Shown here: positions 1,454 to 16,190 of the stretch, in pieces
Numbering within the stretch: the first letter of the stretch is position 1
Layout: each line of letters starts with the position of its first letter
NCBI GenBank assembly: GCA_018897875.1
Contig: JAHIKF010000156.1
Span: forward strand, 1-34,663
Direction of reading: 5' to 3'
DNA from: Pseudomonadota bacterium
GTDB taxonomy: Bacteria; Desulfobacterota; Desulfobaccia; Desulfobaccales; 0-14-0-80-60-11
Length of the DNA: 34,663 nt
Notes under the pieces: generated by a model
Database searches by the model: none
What the model saw: the letters and a program-made list of their open reading frames with translations, nothing else
Told to the model about the DNA's origin: nothing
Program-made: the position numbers and the translations under genes

Positions 1454-2936
1454 CCTTTGCCGCGCCCACCGTAGGCAGCTTGACCCGGAAGGTGGTGCCC
1501 GCCCCGACTTCGCTGTCCACGTCCACCGACCCCCGGTGGGCCTCGATGAGCCCTTTGACCAGCGCCAGGCCTAACCCGGTCCCGATCACCTGCCGGGTCT
1601 TGGGGCTCTTGACCCGGTAGAACTTGTCAAAAATTTTGGAGATCTCCTCCGCCTCAATGCCGATGCCCTGGTCCTTCACCTCAACTTCCAGGTAGTCCCC
1701 GCGGGAGATGGCGGTAATCCTGACTTCGCCCCCATCCGGAGAGTAATTGATGGCATTGCTCACCAGGTTGCCGAACACTTCCTCCATGCTGCGGCGGTCG
1801 GCCTGGATGAGAGGCAGTCCGTCGGGCGCCACCAGCTTCAAGGTGACCTGCTGGCTGGCAGCCCTCTCCCGTAAGAGTTCCACCAGTTCGCCCAGAATTT
1901 CCGGCAAATTCAGCGGCACCTGCTCCAGTTGCCCGTAACCCGCTTCCATCTTGGCCACGTCCAACAGGTCGTTGATCAGGTCGAGCAAACCCTGGATCTT
2001 GGCATGGGCCCGGGTGAGCAGCTCCCGCTGCTTGGCGGTCAGATCCCCGGCCAAACCGTCCAGGATCACGGCATGCTGCTGCTTGATGGCGGCCAGGGGG
2101 GACCGGAGTTCGTGGGACACCATGCGCACGAAATCGTTCTTCATTTCATCCAGTTCTTTGAAGTGGGTGACGTCGTGGAATACGGTGACCGTGCCCAGCA
2201 CCTGGCTGTCCGGCCCGGAAAACGGGGCCGACAAGGCCCGCAGGTGAATGCGGTTTTGGCAAAGCTCCTGGGCGATAAACCGCGCCTCGCTCCGGCTGCC
2301 GCCCGCCAGCAGGGACTCGATGGCCACCTGAAAGTCGCGGTCGCCGACATAGGCCTGCACCGATCCGGGGTGAGGCGGCGGCGCCTGGACCCCCAAAAGC
2401 TGCATGAGGGTAGAGTTGCACAACACCACCTCGCCCTCCCGGTTGGTCACCAGCACCCCGTCGGCCATGCAGTTGACGATGGTGTGCATCCGGCTCTGTT
2501 CCATGGCCAGGTTGTAGAGGTTCCGGGCCTGCTCCTCCTGGAGCTGCCGGGTCTGCTGTTCCAGGAGATGCTTTTCCAGGGCCCGTTTGACCACCAAGAT
2601 GAGGTGGTCGATGCTGAAGGGCTTGGTGACGAAGTCATAGGCGCCCTTTTTCATGCACTCCACCGCGTCGGCCACAGTGCCCAGCCCGGTCATGATGATC
2701 ACCGGGATGCCGGGGTAGCGGACGGAGGTCTGCTCCAGGACCTCCAGGGCCCCCATCACCGGCATCTTCAGGTCGCAGAGGACCACGTTGACCAGCTCGG
2801 CGCCCAGTTTGTCCAGGGCCTCTTGGCCGTTGGCGGCCGTGAGCACCCGGTAGCCTTCGGGCTTGAGAACCAGGGTGCAACCATCCCGAAGCACCTTTTC
2901 GTCGTCCACCACCAATACGGTGTATTGGTCCGTCAT
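1434..2936 (-). CDS. hybrid two-component protein: N-terminal receiver + PAS + HisKA + HATPase_c
   Basis: 500-aa ORF. Receiver YTVLVVDDE...VVLCDLKMPVMG...FVTKPF. PAS-like middle region. H-box SHELRSPL, N-box NLVSNAINYS, G-boxes DQGIGI and GTGLGLALV. SD-like AAGGTG lies upstream of the ATG at 2936. Confidence 0.85.
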   Translation of the reverse strand: MTDQYTVLVVDDEKVLRDGCTLVLKPEGYRVLTAANGQEALDKLGAELVNVVLCDLKMPVMGALEVLEQTSVRYPGIPVIIMTGLGTVADAVECMKKGAYDFVTKPFSIDHLILVVKRALEKHLLEQQTRQLQEEQARNLYNLAMEQSRMHTIVNCMADGVLVTNREGEVVLCNSTLMQLLGVQAPPPHPGSVQAYVGDRDFQVAIESLLAGGSRSEARFIAQELCQNRIHLRALSAPFSGPDSQVLGTVTVFHDVTHFKELDEMKNDFVRMVSHELRSPLAAIKQQHAVILDGLAGDLTAKQRELLTRAHAKIQGLLDLINDLLDVAKMEAGYGQLEQVPLNLPEILGELVELLRERAASQQVTLKLVAPDGLPLIQADRRSMEEVFGNLVSNAINYSPDGGEVRITAISRGDYLEVEVKDQGIGIEAEEISKIFDKFYRVKSPKTRQVIGTGLGLALVKGLIEAHRGSVDVDSEVGAGTTFRVKLPTVGAAKGADAKE

Positions 2937-3031
2937 AATTCACCTTTTGATCAGCGGCCAGCTTCAGGAAGACCCTGGGGCTGCGCTATCTTGCTCATGG
3001 CTGATTGCCGACGGCTGACTGTTTGGCAGAC

Positions 3032-5344
3032 CTATTCCCAGTCCATCTGCTCCTGGTTTTCCTGAGCATCCAGGGGCAGTCTAATGGTGAAATCAGTGCC
3101 GCCACCGCGCGGGCTCTCCACCTCGATACTTCCGCCATGCCGTTGAATGACCCCATAGACGATGGATAGGCCCAGGCCGGTGCCTTTACCCGGAGGTTTG
3201 GTGGTAAAAAAGGGGTCAAAAATTTTATCCCGCAGTTCCGGTGGAATCCCACTGCCGGTATCCGCAAAAGTGATGATCACCCCATCTCTCTCAGGGGTAG
3301 CACAGCTGGTGATGGTGATCCTGCCCAGCCGGTTCATAGCGTCGGCGGCATTGAGCAGCAGGTTGGTAAAGACCTGCTGGAGTTCACCCGGATCGCCAAA
3401 AATCTGGGGCAGCTGGTGGTCCAGAGATAGTTTGATCTGGATATTTTGGAAAAGAAGCTGCTGGTCCATAAGCTTCACACACCGCGAGATGATTTCGTTT
3501 ATACTCAGGAGGGTTTTTTGCCCCAAAGACTGCCGGCTGAATTCCAGCAGGCGGGTGACAATTTGTTTACAACGCAGAGTTTGGTTGATGATTTCTTCTA
3601 TGTGGTCACGACCTGCGGCATTCGCCTCCATATGCCGCTGCAATAATTCAGCATAAATGAGGATGCCGGCCAGGGGATTATTGATTTCATGGGCCACCCC
3701 CGCGGCTAACTGCCCCAGGGAGGCAATCTTTTCAGCCTGCAAAAGTTGATTTTGGGTCTCTTCCAGTTTTTTTTGCATCCTTCGATGTTGGCGCAGGTCG
3801 GAAAAGATTCCGACGCTGCCGACTTCTTGCCCCTTGTCCCTGATAATCGCGGCCGAAAACCTCACCGGCACTTCCTCTCCATCTTTATTATAAAAGGTGA
3901 TCTCGGTGGTATTGAGTCGGTCAGGTTGACCGTATTCGCCACTGCGCATCCGGCGCATCATCTCTTTGGCCAATTCGAGCGGATAGAACCGGTGTAATCT
4001 TTTTCTATCGGCGATGACCTCCCCGGCCTGGTAACCCAGGATACGTTCGGCTCCTTCACTAAAAATTAAGGGGCTCCCTTTGGTGTCGATCACCACGATG
4101 CCGTCCACCGAACAACGGATTATATTGCTAAGAAAGATATTGGTTTTTTTAAGTTGTTCATGCATCCTGATGCGTTGGGTGAGGTCACGCAGGTAAATGC
4201 AGGTGAGAATATGTTTGCCGATCTGGGACGCCGCCATGCAGGTCTCGAAGACGCGGTTTTCCTCCGGGTGTATATACGTCCCGTTAAGGGTGGTGCAAAA
4301 TTGTACTTCTTCCTGGCGGTCTTGTTCTCCCATACTTGTCAGTTCCACCGCCATTTTATGATGCTGGGGGGTGAGGATTTCCTCCAGGCTCTTTCCGACC
4401 AGCTCCTCCTTGGACCGTCCGATTATTTCGGCCATCTTTGAGTTGGCAAAGATGATGCGCTGATTCTCATCAGCCATCAGCATGCCTTCTTGGGTCAACT
4501 CGGTGATCAAATCGAGCTTGCGTTCCGCCTCCACTATGGGAGTGATATCCCGAACCGCCTCAAAGCCGCCGATGACCCGGCCCTCGGGGTCGGTGATAAT
4601 GGAGGCGTAGACCGTCACCGGGACTTCCTGGCCGTGCCGGGTCCGCACTACCCGCCGCACCCCGGAGAAGGCCTTTTTCTGGAGCATAACCTGCTTGAGG
4701 ACGCAATCGGCGGTATTGCACTGGACGGTATTCAGCAACTCCCCGCAGGTCATGCGGCCCACCACCTCGCTCCGGGAGTAGCCGCTGAGCTTCTCCATGC
4801 GCTCGTTGAGGTGGGTGACCATTAGAAACGGGTCCACCATGAAGAAGGGTATGGGGAAATTTTCCAGGATGCTGGAGAGGGTCGCCATCTGCTGTGCCAT
4901 CACCGGGTGGGCCAGCAAATCGGCGTGCTCCCGGATGAGGATGAAACAGCCGGCCTTTTGGTTATCGGCGCCCCGGATGGGAGTGGCGCTGAGGGAGAGG
5001 GGGGCGCCCAGGGGCCACCGCGTCTTCAGCAGAACGGGCGCCTGCCGGTAGCTCTCCCCCAGCTGGGGGCACGGCTCGGGCCGGGAGGCGTCCTGGCCGG
5101 TCCCCTCAATAATGGCGGTTTTCGAACAGATGGGACAGGGGCCCCCCGGACGCAGGGACTCCCCAAAGAGTTTCTGTGCGGCGCAATTGAGAAAAACCAC
5201 CTCCCGGTCGCGGTTGGTGACCACCACCGGATCGGGGAACTCCTCCAGGAGCGGACCCAGGAACTCCACCGGCATGGCGGCGGCCCCGGTTAACGCCGGG
5301 GGCGCGTCAGGTCCGCTCGGGGGGGCATCGTGCTCTGATTTCAT
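3032..5344 (-). CDS. cytoplasmic multi-PAS sensor histidine kinase (about four PAS-like modules + HisKA + HATPase_c)
   Basis: The track ORF runs to 5440, but its first 32 codons read through an inverted-repeat element. The Met at 5344 (MKSEHD...) is preceded by GAGAAGGAAC (SD-like). H-box [12 protein letters not shown]-box [11 protein letters not shown]-boxes DTGSGIP and GTGLGLSIV. No hydrophobic TM segment seen. Confidence 0.85.
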
Positions 5345-5402
5345 GGTCCGTTCCTTCTCGCTGGCATAGAGCGAGAGATAAACTCGTTCCCGAGTTCCTG
5401 CC

Positions 5403-5580
5403 TTGAAAAGTGTCTCCGTAGGGTGCGTCCTACGCACCAACTAATCAGCGGAATTGGCGGGCAGTGCCCGCCCTACATATCTCTTCATCATTAGTGGCAC
5501 AGGCCTCTGGCCTGTGGGAAGCAGAGTATGACAGTGTAGCTATTGGTGCGTAGGACGCACCCTACGAAAGACTTTTCAGA
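5403..5580. repeat. MITE/REPIN-like element, about 180 bp, with terminal inverted repeats enclosing further GC hairpins
   Basis: 5417-5440 (CGTAGGGTGCGTCCTACGCACCAA) is the exact reverse complement of 5544-5567. The match extends outward through TGAAAAGT after a 4-5 nt divergent patch. Internal hairpins at 5457-5476 (GGCGGGCAGTGCCCGCC+CTAC) and 5497-5517 (CACAGGCC-tct-GGCCTGTG). No coding capacity. Confidence 0.5.
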
Positions 5581-5591
5581 AAAAACTCACC

Positions 5592-6647
5592 TCAGCGCTC
5601 GGCTGGCGCCGGAGCGCATTCCACCGGGGCGGCAAAGGTGTTCCCCAGGATTACCTGGGCCGCGGCCAGCTCGTGCTGGCGAATGATCAGCGAGATCGAC
5701 GAGATGGTGCAGCTCAGGGCCAACAGGGAGATGTGGGCCGTCTCCAGGGCCGCAACCAATGTGTGGGCGATGCCGTAGCGGTCGCCGAAATGGGGGCCGT
5801 GGAGAAAAATGCCCGCCACCGGGGTGAGGCGCATGGGCTGGAGATCCGGCAGATGGCTTGTCAAAACCCGCCGCACTTCGTCCCCGTGATCCAACCCGCC
5901 GGGTTGGCGCCGGGCCGTGGAAAACGACAGGATGAATTCTTGGCCTCCGAGCCCCGGCAGGGCCACCAAAAACGGTATGGCCAGGCCCAGTTTGCCCATC
6001 TCCATCAGCGCCGTGGCAAACCCGGCCAGGATGTCGGCGGTGGCAATGCTCATGCCCCAGAGGTCCAGGTCCGATTGCGGGATAATCCAGTACACCTTGT
6101 TGACCTTCTCCTGGTAGGTGGCCACCACTTTCTCCAGGTATTCCTTGGGAGGGGCCTGGGCGGAAAAAAATTCCTCGGGGGAGGCGAAACCCGGAAAGGT
6201 GAAATGCTCGAACAACTGTGCCACGGCGGGCTTGATACGCCGGGACGACAGCACCGCGGAGATGGCGGAGGGGGAGCTGGCCAGGCCGTGGATCACCACC
6301 CGGGCTCGGGCCAGGCTCCTGATGAACGTACCTATGACTTCGGGGCGCTTGTCATGGGGGTAAACGGCCAGGATCGAGGTGCCCGGCTGCAAGGCCAGCC
6401 AGGCGGCGGGGTCGGCCCGGGACTGCAGCAGGGTTAGAGCGGCTTCCCCATTGTGGCTGGCGGTGCACAGCACCTCGCGATCGCCAGACACGTGGGTAAA
6501 AAAGGTCAGGTTGAGGCGCTGTTGGGCCAGCGGCGCACACACCGAAGGCCCCAAGCGGTTATCTTCCAACGGGGAGGAAGACTCCACGCAGGCGCCCTCC
6601 TCCAGGACTTTAAGGCCACCTATCCTGATCCGTTCGAATTTTTTCAA
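5592..6647 (-). CDS. hypothetical protein built from ACT-like repeats (aspartokinase C-terminal-like regulatory fold)
   Basis: 351-aa ORF starting at TTG. The C-terminal segment GPHFGDRYGIAHTLVAALETAHISLLALSCTISSISLIIRQHELAAAQVILGNTF follows the ACT pattern of aspartokinase regulatory domains, and 2-3 weaker upstream repeats resemble it. Function is not assignable from sequence alone. Confidence 0.55.
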   Translation of the reverse strand: MKKFERIRIGGLKVLEEGACVESSSPLEDNRLGPSVCAPLAQQRLNLTFFTHVSGDREVLCTASHNGEAALTLLQSRADPAAWLALQPGTSILAVYPHDKRPEVIGTFIRSLARARVVIHGLASSPSAISAVLSSRRIKPAVAQLFEHFTFPGFASPEEFFSAQAPPKEYLEKVVATYQEKVNKVYWIIPQSDLDLWGMSIATADILAGFATALMEMGKLGLAIPFLVALPGLGGQEFILSFSTARRQPGGLDHGDEVRRVLTSHLPDLQPMRLTPVAGIFLHGPHFGDRYGIAHTLVAALETAHISLLALSCTISSISLIIRQHELAAAQVILGNTFAAPVECAPAPAER

Positions 6648-6672
6648 AGTTCGTCGGAGTCATGCCTGATGG

Positions 6673-7053
6673 TTAAAGTAATCTTTCGACCGCTTCCACC
6701 AGGGTGGCCGCATCCACGGGTTTGGGAATAAAATCTTCGGCTTCCACGCTCATCCCATCGGCATGGCTATAGCTGGTGGTAGGCACAGCCTCGCCCACCG
6801 CGGTGAGCAAAATGACCGGTATTTCCTTGGTCCACTTGTTGGATTTCAATTCCTTGCACAGCTCGTAGCCATTCTTTCTAGGCATCATCACGTCCAGAAT
6901 CAATACGTCCGGACGGCGTTTTTTAATGGCTTCCTCCCCTTCGATCCCGTCGTAAGCCTTCCCCACCTCAAAGCCCTTGGACTCCAGCATCATGGATACG
7001 GTTTCCACCAGATCCGGATCGTCGTCGACGATCAGTATGTACTTTGCAGACAT
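6673..7053 (-). CDS. single-domain CheY-like response regulator receiver
   Basis: 126-aa ORF with the canonical residues: ILIVDDDP (acidic pair), VLILDVMMP (phospho-Asp), VILLTAV (Thr), FIPKPV (Lys). SD-like GGGGAGG lies upstream of the ATG. Confidence 0.9.
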   Translation of the reverse strand: MSAKYILIVDDDPDLVETVSMMLESKGFEVGKAYDGIEGEEAIKKRRPDVLILDVMMPRKNGYELCKELKSNKWTKEIPVILLTAVGEAVPTTSYSHADGMSVEAEDFIPKPVDAATLVEAVERLL

Positions 7054-7166
7054 GAGACCTCCCCTTTCAAGATGATCGTACTGCCATTATGAACGCAAAC
7101 TGGATAAATTACAAGGCTCATGAGGCCTCTAACGGATTTGGCGAAATTTTATGGCTCTCCCCGGGC

Positions 7167-8102
7167 TTAGGCCAACTGGGGTCTGGGAAAGAGGCCGCCC
7201 CGTTCCACGATTTCCCCGACTTTTTCTTCCCACTCGATGGCCATGATGTGGAAGCCCCGCACGCCTTCCACCTCTTTCAGTTCCTGGATCTGCTCCACCG
7301 CCAGGGTGAGGCCTTCTTCGGCCTGCTTTTCCTTGGGGACGCCGCCGATGCGCCTGATGATGTCGTCGGGAACATCTATGCCCGGGACCCGTTTCTGCAT
7401 GTACTTGGCCATGCCGACGTTTTTCATGGGGGTGATCCCGGCCAGGATGGCCACTTTTTCATGCAAACCCCGGTCCACCATCAGTTTCATGAACTCTTTG
7501 AACGTGTCCATGTTGTAGATGCACTGGGTCTGGATAAACTGCACCCCGGCCGCCACTTTCTTGGCCAGCCGGGACACCCGCATGGCCACGTTGGGCCCGG
7601 CGAAGGGGTTGGCCGCGGCGCCGATGTACATCTGGGGGCGCACCGCAAATTCGTGGCCGCCCAACAGCTTGCCCTCATCCCGCATCATCTTCACGGTCTG
7701 GATGAGCTGGATGGAATCCAGGTCAAAGACGTTGGCGCACTTGGGGTGGTCCCCGAAGTGCTGGTGGTCCCCGGTGAGGCAGAGTATGTTGTTGATGCCG
7801 AAGGAGGCCGCCCCCAGAATATCGCTCTGGAGGGCGATGCGGTTTCGGTCCCTGGTCACCATCTGGAGACAGGCCTCCAGCCCCATGAGCTTGAGGCGGA
7901 TGCAGCAGGCCAGGCTACAGACCCGGCACACCGACGTCTGGTTGTCCGTCACGTTGATGGCATCGACGTAATCCTTGATCAGGTTGCCCTTGTGCTCGAT
8001 CACGGCGCCATCGGCGCTCCGGGGCGGACCCACCTCGGAAGTGACCGCAAAGTTGCCCGAGTCGATCATCTTCTGCAGTTTGCTGGGAGTAGTCACACTC
8101 AT
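7167..8102 (-). CDS. metF: methylenetetrahydrofolate reductase, acetogen/Wood-Ljungdahl type
   Basis: 311-aa ORF. MTHFR-family motifs FAVTSEVGPP, INVTDNQ, ILCLTGDHQ, VQFIQTQCIY. The start overlaps the metV stop (ATGA-type coupling at 8099-8102). Confidence 0.9.
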   Translation of the reverse strand: MSVTTPSKLQKMIDSGNFAVTSEVGPPRSADGAVIEHKGNLIKDYVDAINVTDNQTSVCRVCSLACCIRLKLMGLEACLQMVTRDRNRIALQSDILGAASFGINNILCLTGDHQHFGDHPKCANVFDLDSIQLIQTVKMMRDEGKLLGGHEFAVRPQMYIGAAANPFAGPNVAMRVSRLAKKVAAGVQFIQTQCIYNMDTFKEFMKLMVDRGLHEKVAILAGITPMKNVGMAKYMQKRVPGIDVPDDIIRRIGGVPKEKQAEEGLTLAVEQIQELKEVEGVRGFHIMAIEWEEKVGEIVERGGLFPRPQLA

Positions 8103-8767
8103 ATCCGTAAATCCTCTCTGACGATGGTGCGCGGCCCGCCGTCCCGGGAAGTGCTCCAGTCTTTGGGATCCACGGGTTTTTCAAAGCGGTCCAGTTGCCC
8201 CAGGGTTTTCAGCCGTTCATAGATCAGCTCCCAGCCGCAGGGGATATCTTTGTTGATTTCGCACTTGCCCGCATCAGAGCCGCCGCAGGGGCCGTTGAGC
8301 ATGCGCTTGGAACAGCGGGCGATGGGGCAGATGCCGCCGGTCTCGGCCAGGATGCAGCGGCCGCACGCCTGACAGCGCTCGACATAGAGCCCCCGCTCCT
8401 CGTTGACCCCCAAAAAGCAGGTGTCCACCCCGGGGTAGATGATTTTGTTGTTATACATCTCCGCCATGTACTGGACCCCGCAGCCGCAGGCCAGGGAGAC
8501 CACGGCGTCATAGATGTCCATCTTGTCGGAGAGTTGCGCCAGATATTCCTTTTCGCACTGCCGAGTCAGGCTGGTTTCGTCAATCTGGGCCTGCTTGCCG
8601 GCCTGGGTGAAGTAGAGCCTGAGAGCCGAAGCCAGCACCTTGGCTTCTTTCATGCCGCCGGCTTCGCACACGGTAACGCAACCGTCGCAACCGACAATCA
8701 GCACTTTGGTGAAGTCTTTGACCTGGCCGAGGACTTCTTCCAACGGTTTGGGCACTGCCTTTATCAT
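8099..8767 (-). CDS. metV: MetV: Cys-rich MTHFR C-terminal-domain-like partner subunit of MetF
   Basis: 222-aa ORF with the hallmark ICPIARCSKRMLNGPCGG motif plus further Cys clusters (GCDGCVTVCE, CQACGRC). The start overlaps the mvhD stop (ATGA at 8764-8767). Confidence 0.85.
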   Translation of the reverse strand: MIKAVPKPLEEVLGQVKDFTKVLIVGCDGCVTVCEAGGMKEAKVLASALRLYFTQAGKQAQIDETSLTRQCEKEYLAQLSDKMDIYDAVVSLACGCGVQYMAEMYNNKIIYPGVDTCFLGVNEERGLYVERCQACGRCILAETGGICPIARCSKRMLNGPCGGSDAGKCEINKDIPCGWELIYERLKTLGQLDRFEKPVDPKDWSTSRDGGPRTIVREDLRI

Positions 8768-9219
8768 GTGGTTACCTCCGCAATTGGCCCGGTGGCCTTG
8801 CCTGTCGCAACTCTGATGGGACTGGGACCCAGTTCCATTATTTTTTCAGTGATCTCCCGGACAATCTCGGCGAACCGCCCTCCCATCCCGGAAGACAGAT
8901 TATACATCGCCAGCCGTTCGCCGCCGACGCCGACTTTGTCCAGGATCTCTTTCACCCGGTTGACCCGTTTTTTGGCGTACAGATTTCCGGCGCTATAGTG
9001 GCAGTCTCCCTCCAGGCAGCCCACCACGATGACCCCGTCGGCCCCGTACTCAAACGCCATCAGCAGGTGCATAATATCCACCTTGCCGGTGCAGGGTACC
9101 TCGATGATGCGCACGTTGGGCGGGTACTGCAATCGCATCGAACCTGCCAGGTCCGCGGCGGAATAAGCTCAGTAGTGGCAGCAAAACCCGACAATCTTCG
9201 GCTCAAACGATTCCATCAT
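8764..9219 (-). CDS. mvhD: MvhD-like (methyl-viologen-reducing hydrogenase delta subunit family) protein with in-frame TGA at 9169-9171 read as selenocysteine
   Basis: The track ORF (8764-9138) starts inside the conserved MvhD N-terminus. Reading the same frame upstream gives ATG ATG GAA TCG TTT GAG CCG AAG ATT GTC GGG TTT TGC TGC CAC TAC TGA GCT TAT TCC GCC GCG GAC CTG GCA GGT TCG ATG, i.e. MMESFEPKIVGFCCHY-U-AYSAADLAGSMRLQYPPNVRII. This matches the family pattern FEPKIV.F.CNWCSYAGADLAG..R.QYPPN.RII, with TGA at the second Cys. A strong SD (TGAGGAG) sits 5 nt before the ATG at 9219, just after the hdrL stop at 9228. Confidence 0.8.
9139..9155 (-). other. candidate SECIS-like hairpin downstream of the mvhD UGA
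   Basis: The mRNA sequence CGGACCU-GGC-AGGUUCG forms a 7-bp stem including one G-U pair, starting 13 nt after the UGA. The position fits a bacterial SECIS, but the 3-nt loop is small and no covariance model was run. Confidence 0.3.
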
Positions 9220-9227
9220 CGGACTCC

Positions 9228-12200
9228 TCAGTATAAGGTTTTGATCTTGGCGCTGATCTGGTCGTCTTCAAAATGGGCCACCTGGATGACCTTGGCCGGA
9301 CATTCCGAGGCGCAGGTGCCGCAGCCCTGACACAGGGCCTCGTTGATCTCCGAGACGTTGTCCCGGTTGATCTGCGGGATGCCGTAAGGACAGGTCCGGA
9401 CGCACACCAGGCAGGCGGCGCACCGGTCCGGCTCCACATGCGCAGTGACCCCGCTGATGGTCTGGTTGACGTCCGCCAGGAACGCCCCGGCCCGGGCCGC
9501 CGCGGCCATGGCCTGGGCGATGCTCTCGCCGATAAGCTTGGGCGAATGCGCCATGCCGCACAGGAAGATGCCTTCCGAGGCAAAATCCACCGGCCGCAGC
9601 TTGGCGTGGGCCTCGATGAAAAACCCGTCGGCGTTCCGGGGGATTTTCAGGAGCGAGGCCAATTCCTCGGTATCATTGGCCCGGGCCCCGGCGCTCAACA
9701 CCACCGCGTCCACGGCCATGCTCACCGGGCGCTCCAGCACATGATCCACAAAGGTGACGCTCAACTGGCCGTTGTCATTAGTAACCTGGGGCAAACGGTC
9801 CGGATCGAACCGGGAAAAGAGCACCCCCTTGTCCCGGGCCTCCCGGTAAAAATCCTCCAGGAACCCATAGGTGCGCATGTCCCGGTAGAGGATCACCACG
9901 TCCATGTCGGGGTTGAGTTCCTTAAGCTGCAAGGCGTACTTCACCGCCCCCTGGCAGCAGATGCGGCTGCAGTTGGGGCTCTCCTCATTCCGGGAGCCCA
10001 CGCACTGCACCATGACCACCCGGTCCCACTTGGCGGCTTCATCCTTCGTTTTATGGAGAAAATCGCCCAGTTCCAATTGGGTCATCACCCGCGCGTGTTC
10101 CCCGTAGAGAAATTCCTTGGGGTGATACTCATGGGCGCCGGTGGCCACCACGGTGATCCCGTGGTCGATTTTCCGCTCGTACATGCCGGGCCCCACCAAA
10201 ACTTCGGTGGTGAAGTTGCCTTTGTAGCCGCTAAACCCCACCACCAGGGCCCCGGTGAGCACCTGGATCTTGGCGTGGCCCTTGACCCGCTCGATGAGCC
10301 CGTCCAGGTAGGCCTGAACGTCCAGGCCCTCGATAGTCTTGTGGACCCGGCGGCCTATGCCGCCCAACTGCGGCTCTTTCTCCAGGAGGATGGTCTCGAA
10401 TCCCTGGTCGCCCAGATTGAGGGCGGCGTTGAGGCCGGCGATGCCGCCGCCGATGACCAGGGCCCGCTGGTTGATGCTCAGGGGCTTTTCCAGCAACGGC
10501 TTGAGCAGGGAGGCCCGGGCCACCGCCATCCGCACCAGGTCTTTGGCCTTGTCCGTGGCCTTGTCGTGCTCCTTCATGTGCACCCATGAATCCTGGTTGC
10601 GGATGTTGGCCATCTCAAACAGATATTTGTTCAGGCCGGCGTCGATCAACGTATCCCGGAACAGGGCCTCGTGGGTGATGGGGGTGCAAGCCGCCACCAC
10701 CACCCGGTTGAGGTTGTGTTCCTCGATGATCCGGGTCATGGTGACCTGGGTGTCCTGGGAGCAGGTGAACAGGTTGTCTTCCACGTACGCCACGTTGGGC
10801 AGCGTCTTGGAGTATTCCGCCAGCGCCGGCACGTCTATGATACCGCCGATGTTGATGCCGCAGTTGCAGACGAACACCCCGATGCGTGGGGCGTCCTCCG
10901 GTTTGATGTCCTTGGGTGTGGGCGCCTGCCGGGTCTTGGTCTCGGTCCAGCGGACGTCCCCCAAAGAGGCGCTCACCGCCCCGGCCGCGGCGGATGCCTG
11001 CATGACCGATTCGGGAATGTCTTTGGGACCCTGCATGGCCCCGCAGACATAGATGCCAGGACGGCTTGCCGTCACCGGCGCCAAGGGCGAGGTGGCCACA
11101 AAATCGTGAGCGTTGGTCTCCACCTTCAGGGTCGCAGACAACTCCCGGGCGCCCTGGCTCACCTCCATGCCCACGGACAGCACGATCAGGTTAAAGGCCT
11201 CGGTCTTCTCGGCGCCGCTTTCATCCACAAACCGGATCTGCAAATCACCATCCGGCAAGGGATCGATGCTGTGGATGCGGGACCGGATAAACCGCACCCC
11301 GTGTTCGTCTTTGGCGCGGTTATAGTAGAGTTCGAAGTCTTTGCCGTAGGTCCGCATGTCCATGAAAAAGATGGCGGCGTCCAGCGGATACGGCGCGTGC
11401 TCCTTGGCGATCACCGCCTCTTTGATGGCGTACATGCAGCAGACCGAGGAGCAGTAGGTGTGGTATTTAACATCCCGGGAGCCCACGCATTGGAGCCAGG
11501 CGATCTTCTTGGGCTCGGCGTGGTCCGAAGGCCGGACCAGGTGGCCGCCGAAGGGCCCGGAGGCCGAGAGAATCCGCTCGAACTCCAGGGAGGTCACCAC
11601 ATTGGGCAAACTGGAGTAATGGTAAGTCTCGCACTTGACGGGACTGAAGGCCTCAAATCCCGGCGACAGGATCACGGCCCCCACCTGAACCTCTTTGGTT
11701 TCGGCGGCCATGGTGTGGTCGATGGCCCCGGCCTGGCAGGCGACGACGCACTGCATGCACTCGGAGCAGACCCCGCAATTGAGGCATCTCGCCGCCTCCC
11801 GCTGGGCCTGGTCCTCGGTGTAACCCTGGGCAATTTCATCAAAGCAGGCGCAGGTATGCTCCGGCGGCAGGGCCGCCATCACTTCCCGGGGCGCGCCGGT
11901 TTCATCTTTGGGAATCTCGGCCCAGCGTTTGTGGGCCTCCTCGCCGATGGCGCGGCCCTCAACCATGTCCACACGCCTAAGATAGCGGTCGATGGATTCC
12001 GCGGCTTCGATGCCGCCTCCCACCGCTTCGATGGCAATCCAGGGGCCGGTGTGCACATCGCCGGCGGCAAAGACCCCGGGCCGGGAGGTCTCGTAGGTTA
12101 CTTCATTGACTTCAATGGTGCCCCAGCGGCTCAGCTTGACGCCGCAGGCCGCTAAAGGCCCCTGGGCCGCTTCCTGGCCGATGGCCGGCACCACCATGTC

Positions 12201-13682
12201 CACCGGCAGTTCGAACTCGGCGCCTTCGATGGGCACCGGCTTGCGCCGCCCAGAGGCATCCGGTTCGCCTAATTCCATCTTTTGACAGATGAGGCCTGTG
12301 ACCTTGCCGTCGTGATCGGTGACCGTTCTCAAAGGCGCGGCCAAATAGACGATCTCTACCCCTTCGCAGGTGGCCTGCTCGACTTCATGAGCAAAGGCGG
12401 GCATTTCTTCCCGGGACCGGCGGTAGACGATGGTCACCTCGGAGCCCAGCCGCCGGGCGGTGCAGGCCACGTCGATGGCCACGTTGCCGCCGCCGATGAC
12501 CGCCAGCCGTTTCCCCACGGTCAGGGGTTCTTTCAGGTTCGCCCGGCGCAGAAATTCCACGCCCTGGATAACGCCCTGGGCCTCCTCCCTGGGAATCCCC
12601 AGGGGTTTGCCCACATGGCAGCCGATCCCCAGAAACACGGCCTTATAGCCTTCTTCCAGCAGCTCATCCAGGGTAAAATCCCGGCCCAGGGCGGTGTCGG
12701 TCTTCAGTTCCACCCCCAGGCGCAGGATGTTGTCGATTTCACGGTCCAGGATGTCCTTGGGCAGGCGGTAGTCGGGGATGCCCACCCGCAGCATGCCGCC
12801 GGCCTTAGGCAAGGCCTCCAGGATGGTGGGCCGGTAGCCTTTCAGCGCCAGGTGATAGGCGCAGGCCAAACCCGCCGGGCCGGAGCCGATGATGGCGACC
12901 CGGTCGCTTTTGGCCTCCACCAGCGGCGGCGAGATGGTGCTCAGGTCCACCTGGTCGGCGGCAAACCGCTTCAGATTGCAGATGGCCACGGACGCATCCA
13001 TTTCGGCCCGCCGGCACTTGTCCTCGCAGGGATGGGGGCAAACCCGGCCCAGGACCCCGGGCAGCGGCAGCCGCTCCATGATGAGCTTCACCGCCTCCTC
13101 GTATTTGCCCATCTTGATCAGCTGGACATAGCCCTGGACATTGATCTCCGCCGGACAGGTCAGGGAGCACGGGGCCCGGTCCAGCTTCTTGATGCCGAAG
13201 GCCGCCGGGATCGCCTGAGGATAGAGGCGATAGACCGCCTTCCAGTCGGCCAGGCCGGCGTTAAAGGCGTCCGACATGGTCACCGGGCAGACGTTGGCGC
13301 ACTCGCCGCACCCGGTGCACTTGGCAGGGTCAACATAGCGAGGCTGTTTCTTCAGGGTGACGCTGAGGTTTCCCGCCTCCCCGTCAATGGCCGCCACATC
13401 GGTGAGAGTGTGAATCTCGATATTCAAATGCCGGCCGCACTCCACCAGCTTGGGGGAGATAATGCACATGGAGCAGTCGTTGGTGGGGAAGGTCTTGTCC
13501 AACTGGGCCATAACCCCGCCGATGGCCGGCTTGGTTTCCACCAGATGAACATAGAAGCCCGAGTTGGCCATATCCAGGGCCGCCTGGATGCCGGCGACGC
13601 CGCCGCCCACCACCATCACCGCGCCCACGTTGCCGGAACGCTGGGTTGATTCCTGAGCCGTCACGTCTTTTTCTTGGGGCAT
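9228..13682 (-). CDS. hdrL: giant HdrA-family fusion flavoprotein (HdrL-like): HdrA-like FAD domain with inserted NfnB/GltD-like NAD(P)H:FAD module, followed by a complete second HdrA unit with C-terminal 2x[4Fe-4S] ferredoxin domain
   Basis: 1484-aa uninterrupted ORF. Unit 1: VVGGGVAGIQAALDMANSG, GGVMAQLDKTFPTNDCSMCIISPK, CTGCGECANVCP. Insert: GRVCPHPCEDKCRR, VAIIGSGPAGLACAYHL, LAVIGGGNVAIDVACTARRLG..VTIVYRRSREEMPA, VFAAGDV. Unit 1 continued: WLQCVGSRD...YCSSVCCMYAIKEA. Unit 2: RIGVFVCNCGINIGG, LVIGGGIAGLNAALNL, MVQCVGSRNEESPNCSRICCQGAVKYA, CAACLVCVRTCP, CQGCGTCASECP. Confidence 0.9.
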   Translation of the reverse strand: MPQEKDVTAQESTQRSGNVGAVMVVGGGVAGIQAALDMANSGFYVHLVETKPAIGGVMAQLDKTFPTNDCSMCIISPKLVECGRHLNIEIHTLTDVAAIDGEAGNLSVTLKKQPRYVDPAKCTGCGECANVCPVTMSDAFNAGLADWKAVYRLYPQAIPAAFGIKKLDRAPCSLTCPAEINVQGYVQLIKMGKYEEAVKLIMERLPLPGVLGRVCPHPCEDKCRRAEMDASVAICNLKRFAADQVDLSTISPPLVEAKSDRVAIIGSGPAGLACAYHLALKGYRPTILEALPKAGGMLRVGIPDYRLPKDILDREIDNILRLGVELKTDTALGRDFTLDELLEEGYKAVFLGIGCHVGKPLGIPREEAQGVIQGVEFLRRANLKEPLTVGKRLAVIGGGNVAIDVACTARRLGSEVTIVYRRSREEMPAFAHEVEQATCEGVEIVYLAAPLRTVTDHDGKVTGLICQKMELGEPDASGRRKPVPIEGAEFELPVDMVVPAIGQEAAQGPLAACGVKLSRWGTIEVNEVTYETSRPGVFAAGDVHTGPWIAIEAVGGGIEAAESIDRYLRRVDMVEGRAIGEEAHKRWAEIPKDETGAPREVMAALPPEHTCACFDEIAQGYTEDQAQREAARCLNCGVCSECMQCVVACQAGAIDHTMAAETKEVQVGAVILSPGFEAFSPVKCETYHYSSLPNVVTSLEFERILSASGPFGGHLVRPSDHAEPKKIAWLQCVGSRDVKYHTYCSSVCCMYAIKEAVIAKEHAPYPLDAAIFFMDMRTYGKDFELYYNRAKDEHGVRFIRSRIHSIDPLPDGDLQIRFVDESGAEKTEAFNLIVLSVGMEVSQGARELSATLKVETNAHDFVATSPLAPVTASRPGIYVCGAMQGPKDIPESVMQASAAAGAVSASLGDVRWTETKTRQAPTPKDIKPEDAPRIGVFVCNCGINIGGIIDVPALAEYSKTLPNVAYVEDNLFTCSQDTQVTMTRIIEEHNLNRVVVAACTPITHEALFRDTLIDAGLNKYLFEMANIRNQDSWVHMKEHDKATDKAKDLVRMAVARASLLKPLLEKPLSINQRALVIGGGIAGLNAALNLGDQGFETILLEKEPQLGGIGRRVHKTIEGLDVQAYLDGLIERVKGHAKIQVLTGALVVGFSGYKGNFTTEVLVGPGMYERKIDHGITVVATGAHEYHPKEFLYGEHARVMTQLELGDFLHKTKDEAAKWDRVVMVQCVGSRNEESPNCSRICCQGAVKYALQLKELNPDMDVVILYRDMRTYGFLEDFYREARDKGVLFSRFDPDRLPQVTNDNGQLSVTFVDHVLERPVSMAVDAVVLSAGARANDTEELASLLKIPRNADGFFIEAHAKLRPVDFASEGIFLCGMAHSPKLIGESIAQAMAAAARAGAFLADVNQTISGVTAHVEPDRCAACLVCVRTCPYGIPQINRDNVSEINEALCQGCGTCASECPAKVIQVAHFEDDQISAKIKTLY

Positions 13683-13724
13683 AATTCTATCCCTTATAAG
13701 CCTGATAAAATTCTCTGGAGTCCG

Positions 13725-14597
13725 CTATAAACCGGCCGCCGCCAGGATCGACGGTAGTTTGTCCTCCCACCCGATGGTGGAGACGAGCACTCCCGGGAAT
13801 CCCTGCTTTTTGACCGCAGCCAGGAATTCCGAGGCGATCTGCACACACTCCCGCACCCGGTCGGAGCTTTTATGAATCCGGGTGACGAAAGCTTCCGGGA
13901 TTTTCATCTCCATGTGGGCGTTGATGTAGCGGGCCATGCCCACACTCTTCAAGAGCATAACCGTGGGGATGATGGCCGCCTGGCGCTTGCCCACCTGATG
14001 CCGGAAATTTTTCAGAACTTCCACGTCGAAAACCGGCTGGGTGGTGAAAAACCGGGCCCCGGCGGCAATCTTTTGATCCAGGTCCGCCAACTCCTGCTTC
14101 AAGGCTCCGGCCTCGCTGGTCACCTTGACGGTGGCGCCCACCAGGAATTGCGGCGACCCTTTGAGATCCACCCCGGCCAGGTCCCGGCCGGTCTGCAAGG
14201 TTTGAATGGCCGCCAGCAAGTCCAGGAGATTTAGGTCGTTAACCGCCTTGGCCTGATGATGGTCGCCATGGGTGATTTCATCGCCGGACACCACCATGAC
14301 ATTGGCAACCCCCAGGGCCTGCGCCGCCAACAGGTCGCCTTGCAGCGCCAGGCGGTTGCGGTCCCGGCAGCAGACCTGCAGCACCGTTTCCAGCCCCTTG
14401 GTCTGCAACAGGAGCGCCCCGCCCAGAGAACTCAAGCGCATCACGGCGTTGTTCATCTCCGGGACCACAAAGGCGTCCACCATGCGTTTGACGCTGGTGG
14501 CGGCTCCCACCATGTCGGAAACATCCGTGCCTTTGGGCGGCTCGATCTCCGCCAGAATGACGAATTCGCCGGAAGTCAATTTCTCTTGTAATGGCAT
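13725..14597 (-). CDS. second methylenetetrahydrofolate reductase family paralog, with no adjacent MetV-like partner
   Basis: 290-aa ORF. MTHFR-like FVILAEIEPPKG, QVCCRDRNRLALQGDLL, VMVVSGDE, RFFTTQPVF. Clearly diverged from the 311-aa metF at 7167-8102. Confidence 0.85.
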   Translation of the reverse strand: MPLQEKLTSGEFVILAEIEPPKGTDVSDMVGAATSVKRMVDAFVVPEMNNAVMRLSSLGGALLLQTKGLETVLQVCCRDRNRLALQGDLLAAQALGVANVMVVSGDEITHGDHHQAKAVNDLNLLDLLAAIQTLQTGRDLAGVDLKGSPQFLVGATVKVTSEAGALKQELADLDQKIAAGARFFTTQPVFDVEVLKNFRHQVGKRQAAIIPTVMLLKSVGMARYINAHMEMKIPEAFVTRIHKSSDRVRECVQIASEFLAAVKKQGFPGVLVSTIGWEDKLPSILAAAGL

Positions 14598-14615
14598 CGC
14601 GGTCCCTCTCTGAGA

Positions 14616-15035
14616 TTATTGGGATGATCGCACCATGGCGTTCGAGATAGCTAAAATCAGATCATCCGGGCCAAAGGAGTTCACATGATAGTAAAAAATC
14701 CCCTGTTGCCGGATACGGCTTTCCTGTTCCGGATTGTTTTCATCCGCAGTAATGATGATGGGCAGCTTGCGGTCCAGGCCCTTGATGATGGAGATGGCCT
14801 CGTAACCCATATCTTCCGGCAGGCGCACATCCATGACCAGCACATTGATCTTTTCACTCTGCAGGGTCATGAGCAGGTCTTTGATGTTGTCCACGGCTTT
14901 GAGCCGGTGTCCCTGTTCGGTGACCCAGAAATCCAGATTCTGCGACAAGGCCCCGCCGCGTTCGGCGATCAACAGTGTGCCACCCTTTTCCGTCATCATT
15001 GGCGTCCCGGAATTCCCGAACCGAGTTACTGCCAC
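14616..15035 (-). CDS. degenerate (pseudo-)receiver domain protein, first gene of the operon
   Basis: Receiver-like fold: VLVMDVRLPEDMG keeps the Asp and PIIITAD keeps the Thr. The N-terminal acidic pair is replaced (LLIAERGG) and the conserved Lys position reads YHVNSF. The start is ambiguous: GTG at 15035 has no SD, and the ATG ATG at 14999 has only a weak SD. Confidence 0.6.
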   Translation of the reverse strand: MAVTRFGNSGTPMMTEKGGTLLIAERGGALSQNLDFWVTEQGHRLKAVDNIKDLLMTLQSEKINVLVMDVRLPEDMGYEAISIIKGLDRKLPIIITADENNPEQESRIRQQGIFYYHVNSFGPDDLILAISNAMVRSSQ

Positions 15036-15238
15036 TGTGATTGGTTGGTAATTGGTTCTTGTTTAAATAATGCAAGGCCTATGCCCTGAAGCGGGCGGCG
15101 GAAACCCCGCGCCCAGACTCATCCTTGGGAAAATAAGTTCAAGCTGTCAGGGGAGAATGCGGGAAGTTTTGGGGCAGAGAAAATAAGGCTACTTACATAT
15201 CTCATTGATATTGCAGCTTTTTAATAGATATGGGTAAA

Positions 15239-15266
15239 ATTGCCACATTTGTTACCATATTGCCAC
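15239..15266. promoter_or_regulatory. direct repeat ATTGCCAC x2 with 20-nt phasing in the operon leader (candidate regulator site)
   Basis: ATTGCCAC at 15239-15246 and at 15259-15266. A third TTTGCCAC is at 15558-15565. No function can be assigned. Confidence 0.25.
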
Positions 15267-15370
15267 GTGGCTCAGGAGGCCTAGGCCCAGGTTTGGTTTC
15301 CGGGCCAGGCGCCCCAGCCGGAGTCTCAATCGCTAAACCAGATGGCTATTAGCTAACCGGAGCCTTTGGT

Positions 15371-15408
15371 GTTCCCCGGCGCTGCCGGCGCCAGGGAACA
15401 ACGGCTAC
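15371..15408. repeat. REP-like hairpin (GTTCCCCGGCGC-tgcc-GGCGCCAGGGAAC) followed by CTAC
   Basis: Imperfect palindrome at 15371-15398, CTAC at 15405-15408. Same design as the other GC hairpins in the window. Confidence 0.4.
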
Positions 15409-15531
15409 GGAAAAAATCTTTTTTTTCTGTCCCCCGAAACCGCGCCAATGGCATCAACACATTGATATAATGCGCTATTTCCCTTCTCACCGCCATACCT
15501 GACGATTCCGCGGGTTTTTCCTCAACCTGCC

Positions 15532-15561
15532 AGATTATTTGACAACCCGCTAGATTATTTG
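15532..15561. promoter_or_regulatory. direct repeat AGATTATTTG x2 with 20-nt phasing (candidate regulator site)
   Basis: AGATTATTTG at 15532-15541 and at 15552-15561, inside the 666-bp non-coding leader. Confidence 0.25.
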
Positions 15562-15643
15562 CCACTGCGCGGCTGCCTCGGACCATCATCTGACACCGGG
15601 CAACACTGTGACGTCACCATATACCAGATTGCAGTCAAAGGGT

Positions 15644-15692
15644 GGCACAGGCTTTCCAGCCTGTGCCGGGGCAGGCTAAAGCCTGCGGCTAC
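15644..15692. repeat. tandem REP-like hairpins with GTAG/CTAC, immediately downstream of trmO
   Basis: GGCACAGGC-tttcca-GCCTGTGCC (15644-15667), GCAGGC-taaa-GCCTGC (15671-15686), CTAC at 15689-15692. The first stem is related to the 5497-5517 hairpin. It may double as a transcription stop for trmO, but no U-tract follows on the minus strand. Confidence 0.45.
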
Positions 15693-15701
15693 AAAAAATA
15701 G

Positions 15702-16190
15702 TCAGTCCATAAACCGGCCGTCGTCCCTGGCGCCTTGGAGCCGGTCCAGATTTTCAGCCAGCCAGCCGCTGGTCGCCCCGTCCCGGCGATCAAACCGGTC
15801 CACGTAAGGCTTGATGTCCAAAAGCGGCGTGCCGTCCACGATATCCACCTCCCGGATGTAGAGCCGCGTGCCGTCGATGCGCTCCAACCGCACGGTGGAA
15901 ATGCCGATGGGGTTCGGTCGGGCCGGCGCCCGGGTGGCAAACAGGCCGCGTTTTTGGTCATCCAGAAAGGGCTGCACCAGGAGGGAAAATCCCGGGGCCA
16001 GATGAAAGTAGTAGACCAAAATGAGGTGGGAAAAACCTTCCAGGTCTCTAAGGCCCTCCCCATATTCCGGGAACACCTCCACCATCCCCTGGGTCCCGGC
16101 CGCCGCGCCCGGTTGAATAGGCGTGCCCGGCGGTGCCTTAAAAGGCGAACGCACCGTGCCGATGGGCCTTAAAACAATCTCGGTTGGCAT
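15702..16190 (-). CDS. trmO: tRNA (t6A37) methyltransferase TrmO/TsaA (YaeB) family
   Basis: IVLRPIGTVRSPF...EGFSHLILVYYFH...RAPARPNPIGISTVRLERIDG..LYIREVDIVDGTPLLDIKPYV is the TsaA-like fold signature. The Met at 16190 has GGAG 7 nt upstream. The track ORF extends to 16304 without family support. Confidence 0.85.
   Translation of the reverse strand: MPTEIVLRPIGTVRSPFKAPPGTPIQPGAAAGTQGMVEVFPEYGEGLRDLEGFSHLILVYYFHLAPGFSLLVQPFLDDQKRGLFATRAPARPNPIGISTVRLERIDGTRLYIREVDIVDGTPLLDIKPYVDRFDRRDGATSGWLAENLDRLQGARDDGRFMD

Follow-up and report, generated by a model that had tools for sequence, protein, structure and literature searches.

A giant HdrA-type protein with an internal NAD(P)H oxidoreductase-like module, encoded among methylene-tetrahydrofolate reductase genes in a Desulfobaccales genome

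The 34,663-nucleotide contig JAHIKF010000156.1 (assembly GCA_018897875.1) of a Desulfobaccales bacterium, which was analysed at full length and is called the window below, carries a gene, hdrL, whose 1484-residue product joins two HdrA-like units and an NAD(P)H oxidoreductase-like module in one polypeptide. The question raised by this locus is which reaction such a protein serves. The original prediction, made from the DNA letters, had pointed to similar giant proteins labelled HdrL in Desulfobacterium autotrophicum, and named neither a structure nor an assigned reaction for them. The parallel was correct (Strittmatter 2009, PMC2702500), and the PDB sequence search performed with HdrL likewise gave no solved structure of the fused type. 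The statement about the reaction is out of date: the HdrA protein of Moorella thermoacetica, which has the same architecture, belongs to an NADH-oxidising methylene-tetrahydrofolate (methylene-THF) reductase (PMC9430772, PMC5861303). Since HdrL shares its architecture with the Moorella enzyme, and since its operon and the conserved gene order link it to metVF, it is almost certainly the Moorella-type HdrL subunit of a system linked to methylene-THF reductase (MTHFR). This functional assignment comes from the gene neighbours metF', mvhD, metV and metF, which had not been used before. The whole reading, in which HdrL, MvhD, MetV and MetF would make up a methylene-THF reductase that bifurcates electrons with ferredoxin as the other acceptor, is favoured here with a good deal less confidence.

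Architecture and conserved residues of HdrL

The uninterrupted reading frame that had been described was recovered at 9228-13682 with 1484 codons, and its strand, which had not been given, is the minus strand. All of the motifs quoted earlier were found in the translation, namely GGVMAQLDKTFPTNDCSMC (residues 55-73), GRVCPHPCEDKCRR, GSGPAGL, GGGNVAID and YRRSREEMPA, as well as CVGSRD...CSSVCC, VFVCNCGINIGG, EKEPQLGGIGRRVHKT, CVGSRN...CSRICC and the terminal pair of CxxCxxCxxxCP motifs. Domains were parsed with Pfam and NCBIfam profiles, which confirmed both the HdrA and the GltD/NfnB modules, and the module boundaries were taken from residue-level HMMER alignments to the HdrA chain 8rvu. The gene and its modules are as follows.

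9228..13682, minus strand: hdrL (giant HdrA), 1484 aa, ATG start, stop codon within the coordinates
13191..13631, minus strand: first part of HdrA unit 1 (residues 18-164), with the FAD Rossmann fold, the FPTNDC70SMC73 loop and the first CxxCxxCxxxCP of the inserted ferredoxin domain
11775..13190, minus strand: NfnB/GltD-like NAD(P)H-FAD module (residues 165-636), with two predicted [4Fe-4S] clusters
10968..11774, minus strand: second part of HdrA unit 1 (residues 637-905), with the second Cys motif of the inserted ferredoxin domain, the rest of the TrxR-like FAD domain, CX11CX3CC and E702/K754
10503..10892, minus strand: N-terminal (MvhD-like) cluster domain of HdrA unit 2 (residues 931-1060), aligning to HdrA residues 4-130
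9453..10502, minus strand: TrxR-like FAD domain of HdrA unit 2 (residues 1061-1410), without the inserted ferredoxin domain and without Cys194/Cys197
9231..9452, minus strand: C-terminal 2x[4Fe-4S] ferredoxin domain of HdrA unit 2 (residues 1411-1484), Fer4_10/Fer4_21, aligning to HdrA residues 570-650

The HdrA families NF040770 and NF041778 each matched four stretches of HdrL, with 937 and 711 bits, respectively. These scores lie under the equivalog cut-offs (1100 and 1400), thus HdrL is a derived, fused relative and not an equivalog of the CoB-CoM heterodisulfide reductase subunit. In the PDB sequence search the HdrA chains 8rvu and 5odc matched it at E ~1e-180. Since residues 22-164 align to HdrA residues 154-296 and residues 637-903 to HdrA residues 299-568, the 470-aa module interrupts the inserted ferredoxin domain between its two cluster motifs (HdrA 296/299). 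The insert had been recognised correctly as NfnB/GltD-like, while its size, put at about 400 aa, is about 470 aa (residues 165-636) according to the alignments. Unit 1 contains neither the N-terminal domain of HdrA nor its C-terminal ferredoxin domain. Unit 2 (approx. 927-1484) aligns to HdrA 4-235 and 324-650, the alignment passing from position 232 to 247 of the query while the chain passes from 235 to 324. This second HdrA is therefore not the complete one that had been supposed, for the inserted ferredoxin domain of about 90 aa and Cys194/Cys197 are missing from it. The multi-module reading as such proved correct, since a single chain contains three dinucleotide folds of the flavin type, a further one for NAD(P)H and 8-9 [4Fe-4S] sites. 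An AF2 model of residues 1-1200, calculated from an 82-row alignment (pLDDT 84.9, pTM 0.76), gave the structural comparison that had been proposed; in Foldseek unit 1 superposed on HdrA with a TM of up to 0.94 of the target and the insert on NfnB with 0.78-0.80.

Conservation was evaluated in a 73-sequence alignment of the window protein and 72 orthologues. Thirty-seven cysteines are invariant (those of the two CX(10-12)CX3CC motifs, eight in the inserted ferredoxin domain, seven in the NfnB-like module, four in the N-terminal domain, eight in the C-terminal domain and C70/C73), which is enough for 8-9 [4Fe-4S] clusters. The HdrA motifs correspond to C732/C744/C748/C749 in unit 1 and C1227/C1238/C1242/C1243 in unit 2, GxGxxG is invariant as well, and in unit 2 the N-terminal domain keeps C939, C941, C974 and C999 without exception and the C-terminal domain all 8 of its 8 Cys. 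The pair E356/K409 is the literature signature for bifurcating HdrA flavins, as cited in PMC9430772. Its equivalents in unit 1, E702 and K754, are invariant in 72/72 sequences, while those in unit 2 are variable, the window having G1206 and K1248.

A further observation concerns this second site. The E+K pair of unit 2 is kept mainly where hdrC/hdrB adjoin hdrL (loci L043, L046, L055, L075 and L079), and its Glu is replaced by G, A or D in HdrBC-less clades, that of the window among them.

Cys73 of unit 1 (codon 13464-13466) is the equivalent of HdrA Cys197. The same position is an in-frame TGA, read as selenocysteine (Sec), in 32 of the 72 orthologues (among loci L009-L080), where the context is NDCAM-U-IISP. 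This Cys/Sec alternation marks a functional redox or ligand residue, and because of the TGA many database entries are split into pieces of about 76 aa and about 1400 aa. In the methanogen dimer Cys197 comes from the partner protomer and ligates the cluster of the N-terminal domain (PMC9012536). Since unit 1 of HdrL has Cys73 but no N-terminal domain, and unit 2 has an N-terminal domain with four invariant Cys but no Cys197, the chain resembles a covalently joined pseudo-dimer in which each accessory domain occurs once. Such complementarity between Cys197 and the N-terminal domain in fused HdrAs, including the Moorella protein, has already been published (PMC9012536). The methanogen HdrA (5ODC, 8RVU, 7BKB) has in common with HdrL the TrxR-like FAD domain, the CX(10-12)CX3CC motif, the Cys194/Cys197 loop, E356/K409 and the N-terminal, inserted and C-terminal FeS domains. 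It is, however, a homodimer of complete 650-aa chains which works with HdrBC and MvhAG or Fdh on CoM-S-S-CoB, whereas in HdrL two partial units that complement each other share one chain with an NAD(P)H module, and neither HdrBC nor a hydrogenase is present. In ANME-1 archaea HdrA9-11 carry an NfnB-like insertion of about 500 aa in the inserted ferredoxin domain, and the fused or tandem HdrA3/4, which show complementary loss of Cys197 and of the N-terminal domain, have been proposed to form their own heterodimer (Chadwick et al. 2022, PMC9012536). These proteins differ from HdrL in being archaeal, in having insertion and fusion in separate proteins and in the lack of metVF linkage; moreover, the unit order of HdrA3/4 is reversed, the unit with the N-terminal domain coming first.

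The TrxR cores of the two units are 31.5% identical to each other, and 43.6% (unit 1) and 36.8% (unit 2) identical to M. marburgensis HdrA (8RVU). In the maximum-likelihood tree of the HdrA halves, an analysis that had been suggested earlier, the unit-1 sequences form one clade (support 100/99) and the unit-2 sequences another (100/100), with broadly parallel internal topologies. Two separate supported clades with parallel topology indicate that the tandem arose once, before the radiation of the family, and that the halves then diverged asymmetrically. A recent tandem duplication is ruled out by the two clades and by the low mutual identity as compared with the 44% and 37% to archaeal HdrA.

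The insert was examined in the same manner, and the domain searches confirmed its NfnB/GltD-like nature, on which the original prediction stood or fell. PRK12771 (GltD/NfnB-type) scored 574 bits against a cut-off of 516 over residues 169-668, Fer4_20 (PF14691) matched residues 169-245 at 2.9e-20 and Pyr_redox_2 (PF07992) residues 261-555 at 1.5e-60. The best PDB matches were the A-subunits of NfnABC/StnABC (9bov_A, 9n5u_A and 8oh5_C, residues 101-575) and NfnB (4ylf_B, E 1e-93 and 43% identity; 5jca_L, 1e-85), and the superposition on NfnB had an rmsd of 2.2-2.7 A (TM 0.80 for 4ylf_B). Invariant residues of the insert are C172, C176, C215, C219, C223, C633, C636, R306, G266/G268/G271 and G397-399. 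The characterised relatives, NfnB of T. maritima (4YLF/4YRY) and P. furiosus (5JCA) and the A-subunits of NfnABC/StnABC (9BOV, 9N5U, 8OH5), are 37-44% identical to it and have the same FAD and NAD(P)H Rossmann folds, two [4Fe-4S] sites and the YRR(S/T) NADPH motif; R306 is the equivalent of the Arg187 that contacts the flavin N5, and the 'RCLxCG' ligand motif follows the module in HdrL as in the A-subunits. In contrast to these proteins, the module is neither a subunit nor an N-terminal domain, but an internal HdrA insertion without NfnA, NfnB(Bfu) or NfnC partners, and no NfnA- or GltB-like gene was found in the window. Thus it is NfnB-like in fold and cofactors, and it is not an Nfn or GOGAT subunit. 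In NfnABC, NADPH enters at the FAD module, from which FeS clusters carry single electrons on to a site of bifurcation that lies elsewhere (PMC11829005).

At the end of the beta-strand of the NAD(P)H fold (residues 419-424, window approx. 12411-12428) VYRR(S/T) is present in 54 of the 72 sequences, and (C/M/S)LE in the other 18, which are nearly all from metVF-linked or incompletely sampled loci. YRR(S/T) is common to the characterised NADPH-binding relatives of the NfnB, NfnABC and StnABC types. The alternation suggests a switch of coenzyme between NADPH and NADH in some lineages, and the VYRRS of the window predicts NADPH for HdrL.

The operon and its relatives

The gene hdrL belongs to the operon metF'-hdrL-mvhD(Sec)-metV-metF, the members of which are all on the minus strand and overlap or nearly abut each other. 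The further genes are the following.

14616-15035 and 6673-7053, minus strand: single-domain receiver genes flanking the operon on both sides
13725..14597, minus strand: metF', 290 aa, divergent MTHFR paralogue heading the operon; PF02219 at 7e-31 over the full length, PRK08645 184 bits
8764..9219, minus strand: mvhD (FlpD), 151 aa; PF02662 at 2e-39; ORF callers give 8764-9138 only
8099..8767, minus strand: metV, FeS subunit of MetVF-type MTHFR, 222 aa; PF12225 at 2e-37; its start overlaps the mvhD stop
7167..8102, minus strand: metF, canonical catalytic subunit of MetVF-type MTHFR, 311 aa; PRK08645 205 bits; 4-nt overlap with the metV stop

Synteny was counted by phmmer searches of the window proteins against the ORFs of 80 loci. 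The order hdrL-mvhD-metV(-metF) recurs in about 50 of them, distributed over several phyla, and metV follows mvhD in the same proportion (approx. 50/80). The canonical MetF matches the MTHFRs of the PDB, and its position after metV is conserved. The full order, with a receiver gene (rr) at either end (rr-metF'-hdrL-mvhD-metV-metF-rr), is present in at least three clades of Desulfobacterota, and the bracket of receiver genes is kept in many loci of this gene order (L001-L011, L071 and L075), which suggests dedicated regulation of the operon. Histidine kinases and a downstream sigma-54 activator of the NtrC type are encoded at window 77-5440. The only match to the sigma-54 promoter TGGCAC-N5-TTGCW was on the wrong strand and at chance level, and in the scan of 6500-15800 for sigma-70 promoters and terminators the counts were at shuffle level, hence uninformative on the operon boundaries.

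In the case of mvhD, the true start is the ATG at 9219, 27 codons (9139-9219) upstream of the called one, and codon 17 is an in-frame TGA (9169-9171) in the sequence MMESFEPKIVGFCCHY-TGA-AYSAADLAGSMRLQYP. At the position of this TGA homologous MvhD genes have U in 17 and C in 28 cases, and it is probably a selenocysteine codon within the motif FCCxY(U/C)AYSAADLAG. Since the SECIS-like fold after the UGA, a small hairpin with a z-score of 0.26, was not significant, the Sec reading rests on the U/C alternation. No tRNA-Sec was among the 43 tRNAs given by ARAGORN, which in a fragmented genome of 95% completeness does not show that the gene is missing.

MetF' is 30% identical to the canonical MetF of the operon, and its gene lies directly upstream of hdrL in 17 of 73 aligned loci, the window included. 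It keeps E.EPPKG and RDRNRLALQ, while the canonical motifs N.TDNQT and sGDHQ are replaced or not conserved; in the flavin region N.TDNQT reads vPEMnnA. The idea that MetF' would be a strict substitute for HdrBC was not supported, for loci L043, L046 and L075 have both.

Only about 12 loci have genes for HdrB and HdrC immediately before hdrL, and most of these belong to Bacillota, Chloroflexota and other phyla. A relative labelled Desulfobacca acetoxidans, 61% identical, has hdrC-hdrB-hdrL-mvhD-metV-metF, that is, the Moorella order. On the 34.7-kb window contig tblastn found no match for hdrB, hdrC or fused HdrCB, and in the closest relatives (L001-L007) a stretch of +/-6 kb is free of hdrB/hdrC. 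Among Desulfobacterota it is very common for the giant HdrA to be accompanied by MvhD and MetVF and not by HdrBC.

The nearest biochemical counterpart is the HdrA of M. thermoacetica, the name HdrL being used in sulfate reducers. This protein of 1487 aa (162.8 kDa) is a subunit of the MetFV-HdrABC-MvhD methylene-THF reductase, also called 'Hdr-type' or type IV (Mock et al. 2014, as described in PMC9430772 and PMC5861303). NADH is oxidised by the complex, methylene-THF is reduced by it when a viologen dye is supplied, and 2 FAD are bound to the HdrA; the reaction proposed starts from 2 NADH + CH2-H4F + Fd(?). The GltD domain interrupts the first TrxR-like domain, and the second HdrA has no inserted ferredoxin domain (PMC9430772). 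By this description and by the Bacillota homologues, the two proteins are alike in the interruption by a GltD-type FeS/FAD/NAD(P)H module, in length (3 aa apart) and in the mvhD-metV-metF genes that follow, and the Bacillota loci of Moorella type (L060, L064) are 52% identical to HdrL over the full length. The window has the giant GltD-containing HdrA together with mvhD, metV and metF, as in a type IV enzyme, while the HdrB and HdrC subunits of that type are not encoded on the contig. Where Moorella has hdrCBA-mvhD-metVF, the window has no adjoining hdrC/hdrB, an additional metF' upstream and a Sec-type MvhD; on the same basis, the E356-equivalent of unit 2 is Glu there and Gly here, and the coenzyme is NADH there and predicted to be NADPH here. 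Pulldowns in Sporomusa ovata have shown that HdrA, MvhD, MetV and MetF interact (PMC9430772).

Proposed reaction and competing explanations

We infer that HdrL, MvhD (a [2Fe-2S] selenoprotein), MetV (2x[4Fe-4S]), MetF (with flavin and folate site) and perhaps MetF' form one complex, in which the two HdrA units would act as an intramolecular pseudo-dimer, Cys73 of unit 1 completing the [4Fe-4S] cluster of the unit 2 N-terminal domain. NAD(P)H, predicted to be NADPH, would give a hydride to the FAD of the inserted NfnB-like module. From there single electrons would pass through the two [4Fe-4S] clusters of the module and the two clusters of the inserted ferredoxin domain, and, after these four, through the Cys73/N-domain cluster to the flavin of unit 1. 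This flavin, the only one whose site has the invariant E/K signature, would be the point of bifurcation. One branch would lead through FeS clusters to MetV, MetF and methylene-THF (E0' -200 mV), while the other, by way of the C-terminal ferredoxin domain of unit 2 and MvhD, would end at a carrier of low potential, for which ferredoxin is the most likely candidate. The reaction would be 2 NAD(P)H + CH2-THF + Fd(ox) <-> 2 NAD(P)+ + CH3-THF + Fd(red), and in this host, a Desulfobaccales bacterium with DsrAB and AcsB, the reverse direction may run during acetyl-CoA oxidation.

Several points weigh against this scheme. The protein, like its HdrBC-less relatives, is known from genes alone, and the choice of NADPH over NADH comes from one motif only. 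Ferredoxin reduction could not be demonstrated for the Moorella enzyme, and its second acceptor has carried a question mark since 2014 (PMC5861303); in the case of S. ovata, the Hdr-type enzyme has been proposed to link to the membrane chain instead (PMC9430772). In the Hdr of methanogens low-potential electrons leave for ferredoxin by way of the inserted ferredoxin domain (PMC9012536). In HdrL, by comparison, this domain carries the NAD(P)H module, so the assignment of the branches may differ from the scheme given above. Finally, this HdrL may not be the copy that serves catabolism, for a second HdrL is encoded in the genome, along with at least eight further HdrA-like genes and three or more MetV/MetF pairs. 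The second full-length HdrL, 55% identical, is encoded with mvhD on contig C453; many tandem HdrAs without insert are present, and at least two further metV-metF pairs, one of which follows hdrA-mvhD (C515). Together with the hdrC-hdrB genes discussed below, these additional sets lie on contigs C453, C515, C432, C322/C473 and C247.

The alternative that survives best, and which we still regard as unlikely, is a non-bifurcating NAD(P)H:methylene-THF oxidoreductase, in which HdrL and MvhD would be the dehydrogenase module and an FeS wire to MetVF, like RnfC2 in the type-III MTHFR of Acetobacterium woodii, with no third substrate. Such MTHFRs and HdrA-containing complexes exist (PMC9430772, PMC5861303), the NfnB-like module of NfnABC serves as a plain input module (PMC11829005), and the Moorella complex was not seen to reduce ferredoxin (PMC5861303). 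A linear wire, however, would have no need of a second HdrA unit, a C-terminal ferredoxin domain or MvhD, and the bifurcating signature E702/K754, which none of the orthologues has lost, argues in the same direction. Furthermore, with NAD(P)+ as the sole acceptor the oxidation of methyl-THF is uphill by about 23 kJ/mol (-200 vs -320 mV; PMC5861303), and the confurcation that belongs to the ferredoxin-coupled scheme would remove this thermodynamic block.

It is improbable, too, that the enzyme is of the Moorella type with a third partner other than ferredoxin, such as HdrBC, an HdrD-like or DsrC-linked module or a membrane quinone partner reached through MvhD and encoded elsewhere, which would couple the reaction to a disulfide (e.g. 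DsrC) or to the membrane. Published surveys assume that HdrABC is encoded away from MetFVD (PMC6085437), the MvhD of S. ovata is mostly membrane-associated (PMC9430772), and the D. acetoxidans relative has the two genes just upstream of hdrL. In the genome of the window tblastn gave HdrB, HdrC and HdrCB matches on contigs C432, C247, C260 and a few others, that is, hdrC-hdrB pairs and fused HdrCB-like genes. Those of C432, however, adjoin a tandem hdrA of their own, which has no insert. The lack of hdrB/hdrC on the window contig and around hdrL in the closest relatives is a further argument against such a partner, as is the loss of the E356-equivalent from unit 2 of this clade (G1206), a residue mostly kept where hdrC/B are adjacent. 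A system that lacks HdrBC leaves fewer possible acceptors and would be easier to test.

A general NAD(P)H electron hub with no part in folate chemistry, such as NAD(P)H:DsrC/sulfite or NAD(P)H:ferredoxin, was first proposed for HdrL of D. autotrophicum, and with that the linkage to metVF would be incidental. HdrL1-HdrL3 of strain HRM2 are fusions of HdrA and glutamate synthase with an NADH-binding site, each followed by mvhD (PMC2702500); they resemble the window protein in this fusion with a glutamate-synthase-like NAD(P)H domain, in the mvhD that comes after it, in having selenoprotein variants and in belonging to Desulfobacterota. They differ from it in adjoining dsrABC or fdh, in the proposal that they feed sulfite reduction and in that no metVF link was noted there. 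HdrL of the window has Cys instead of the Sec of those variants, Sec being found in its MvhD. Paralogues of HdrL stand with dsr genes in D. autotrophicum (PMC2702500), with hdrABC in Syntrophobacter and with fdh/WLP genes, and about 20 of the 80 loci have no metV. Yet this copy, like its whole clade, lies between two MTHFR genes and metV with overlapping stops and starts, in an order that recurs in several clades and phyla, and a folate-unrelated hub is highly improbable for it.

The last alternative, an assembly- or annotation-level fusion of separate genes, found no support at all and is refuted: the protein clusters with full-length relatives number more than 120, such relatives are encoded in 72 loci and in at least 73 genomes, and exact unitigs cover all module junctions.

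A widespread family and its HdrBC-less variant

In the protein search HdrL matched more than 120 clusters with lengths of 1440-1520 aa at 60-95% identity and 98-100% coverage, labelled as Desulfobaccales, Thermodesulfobacteriota or 'Deltaproteobacteria', and in the species-genome scan a relative was encoded by 593 of the 600 stretches among the matches listed. In the 72 loci the hdrL frame is 1406-1514 aa long and either open or interrupted by the single in-frame TGA at the position of Cys73. At least 73 of 201 genomes in an even sample of Desulfobacterota have the full-length frame, including 7/7 of the same order. The sequence is present in groundwater metagenomes of several studies, where exact unitigs run across all three module junctions without any indel that would break the frame. 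The artefact against which the original prediction had warned is thus not the case here, as orthologues have intact frames and the unitigs span the junctions. The host genome (4.0 Mb, 537 contigs) encodes AcsB/CdhC and DsrAB.

As a finding, hdrL is ordinary, since at least 36% of the sampled Desulfobacterota species genomes carry such a gene. The protein is an ordinary member of a known and very widespread family, the architecture of which has already been described. Three features of this locus are worth a remark: the operon without HdrBC, the additional divergent MetF', and Sec in MvhD while HdrL keeps Cys at its often-Sec position. What the present analysis adds to the architecture is a map of sites that can be mutated, namely E702/K754 (in unit 1 only), Cys/Sec73 and the YRR versus CLE motif.

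We tentatively suggest, while considering it doubtful, that the HdrBC-less five-gene set could be a self-contained, NADPH/ferredoxin-coupled confurcating methyl-THF dehydrogenase or bifurcating methylene-THF reductase, in which MetF' would take the structural or catalytic place of HdrBC, for instance as a second folate site on the pseudo-dimer. The locus bears on energy conservation at the methylene-THF step in acetogens and in acetate-oxidising sulfate reducers, and on the coupling partner of the Hdr-type enzyme. If the suggestion were true, the five genes would encode the energy-coupled MTHFR that has long been sought for the (reverse) Wood-Ljungdahl pathway of sulfate reducers.

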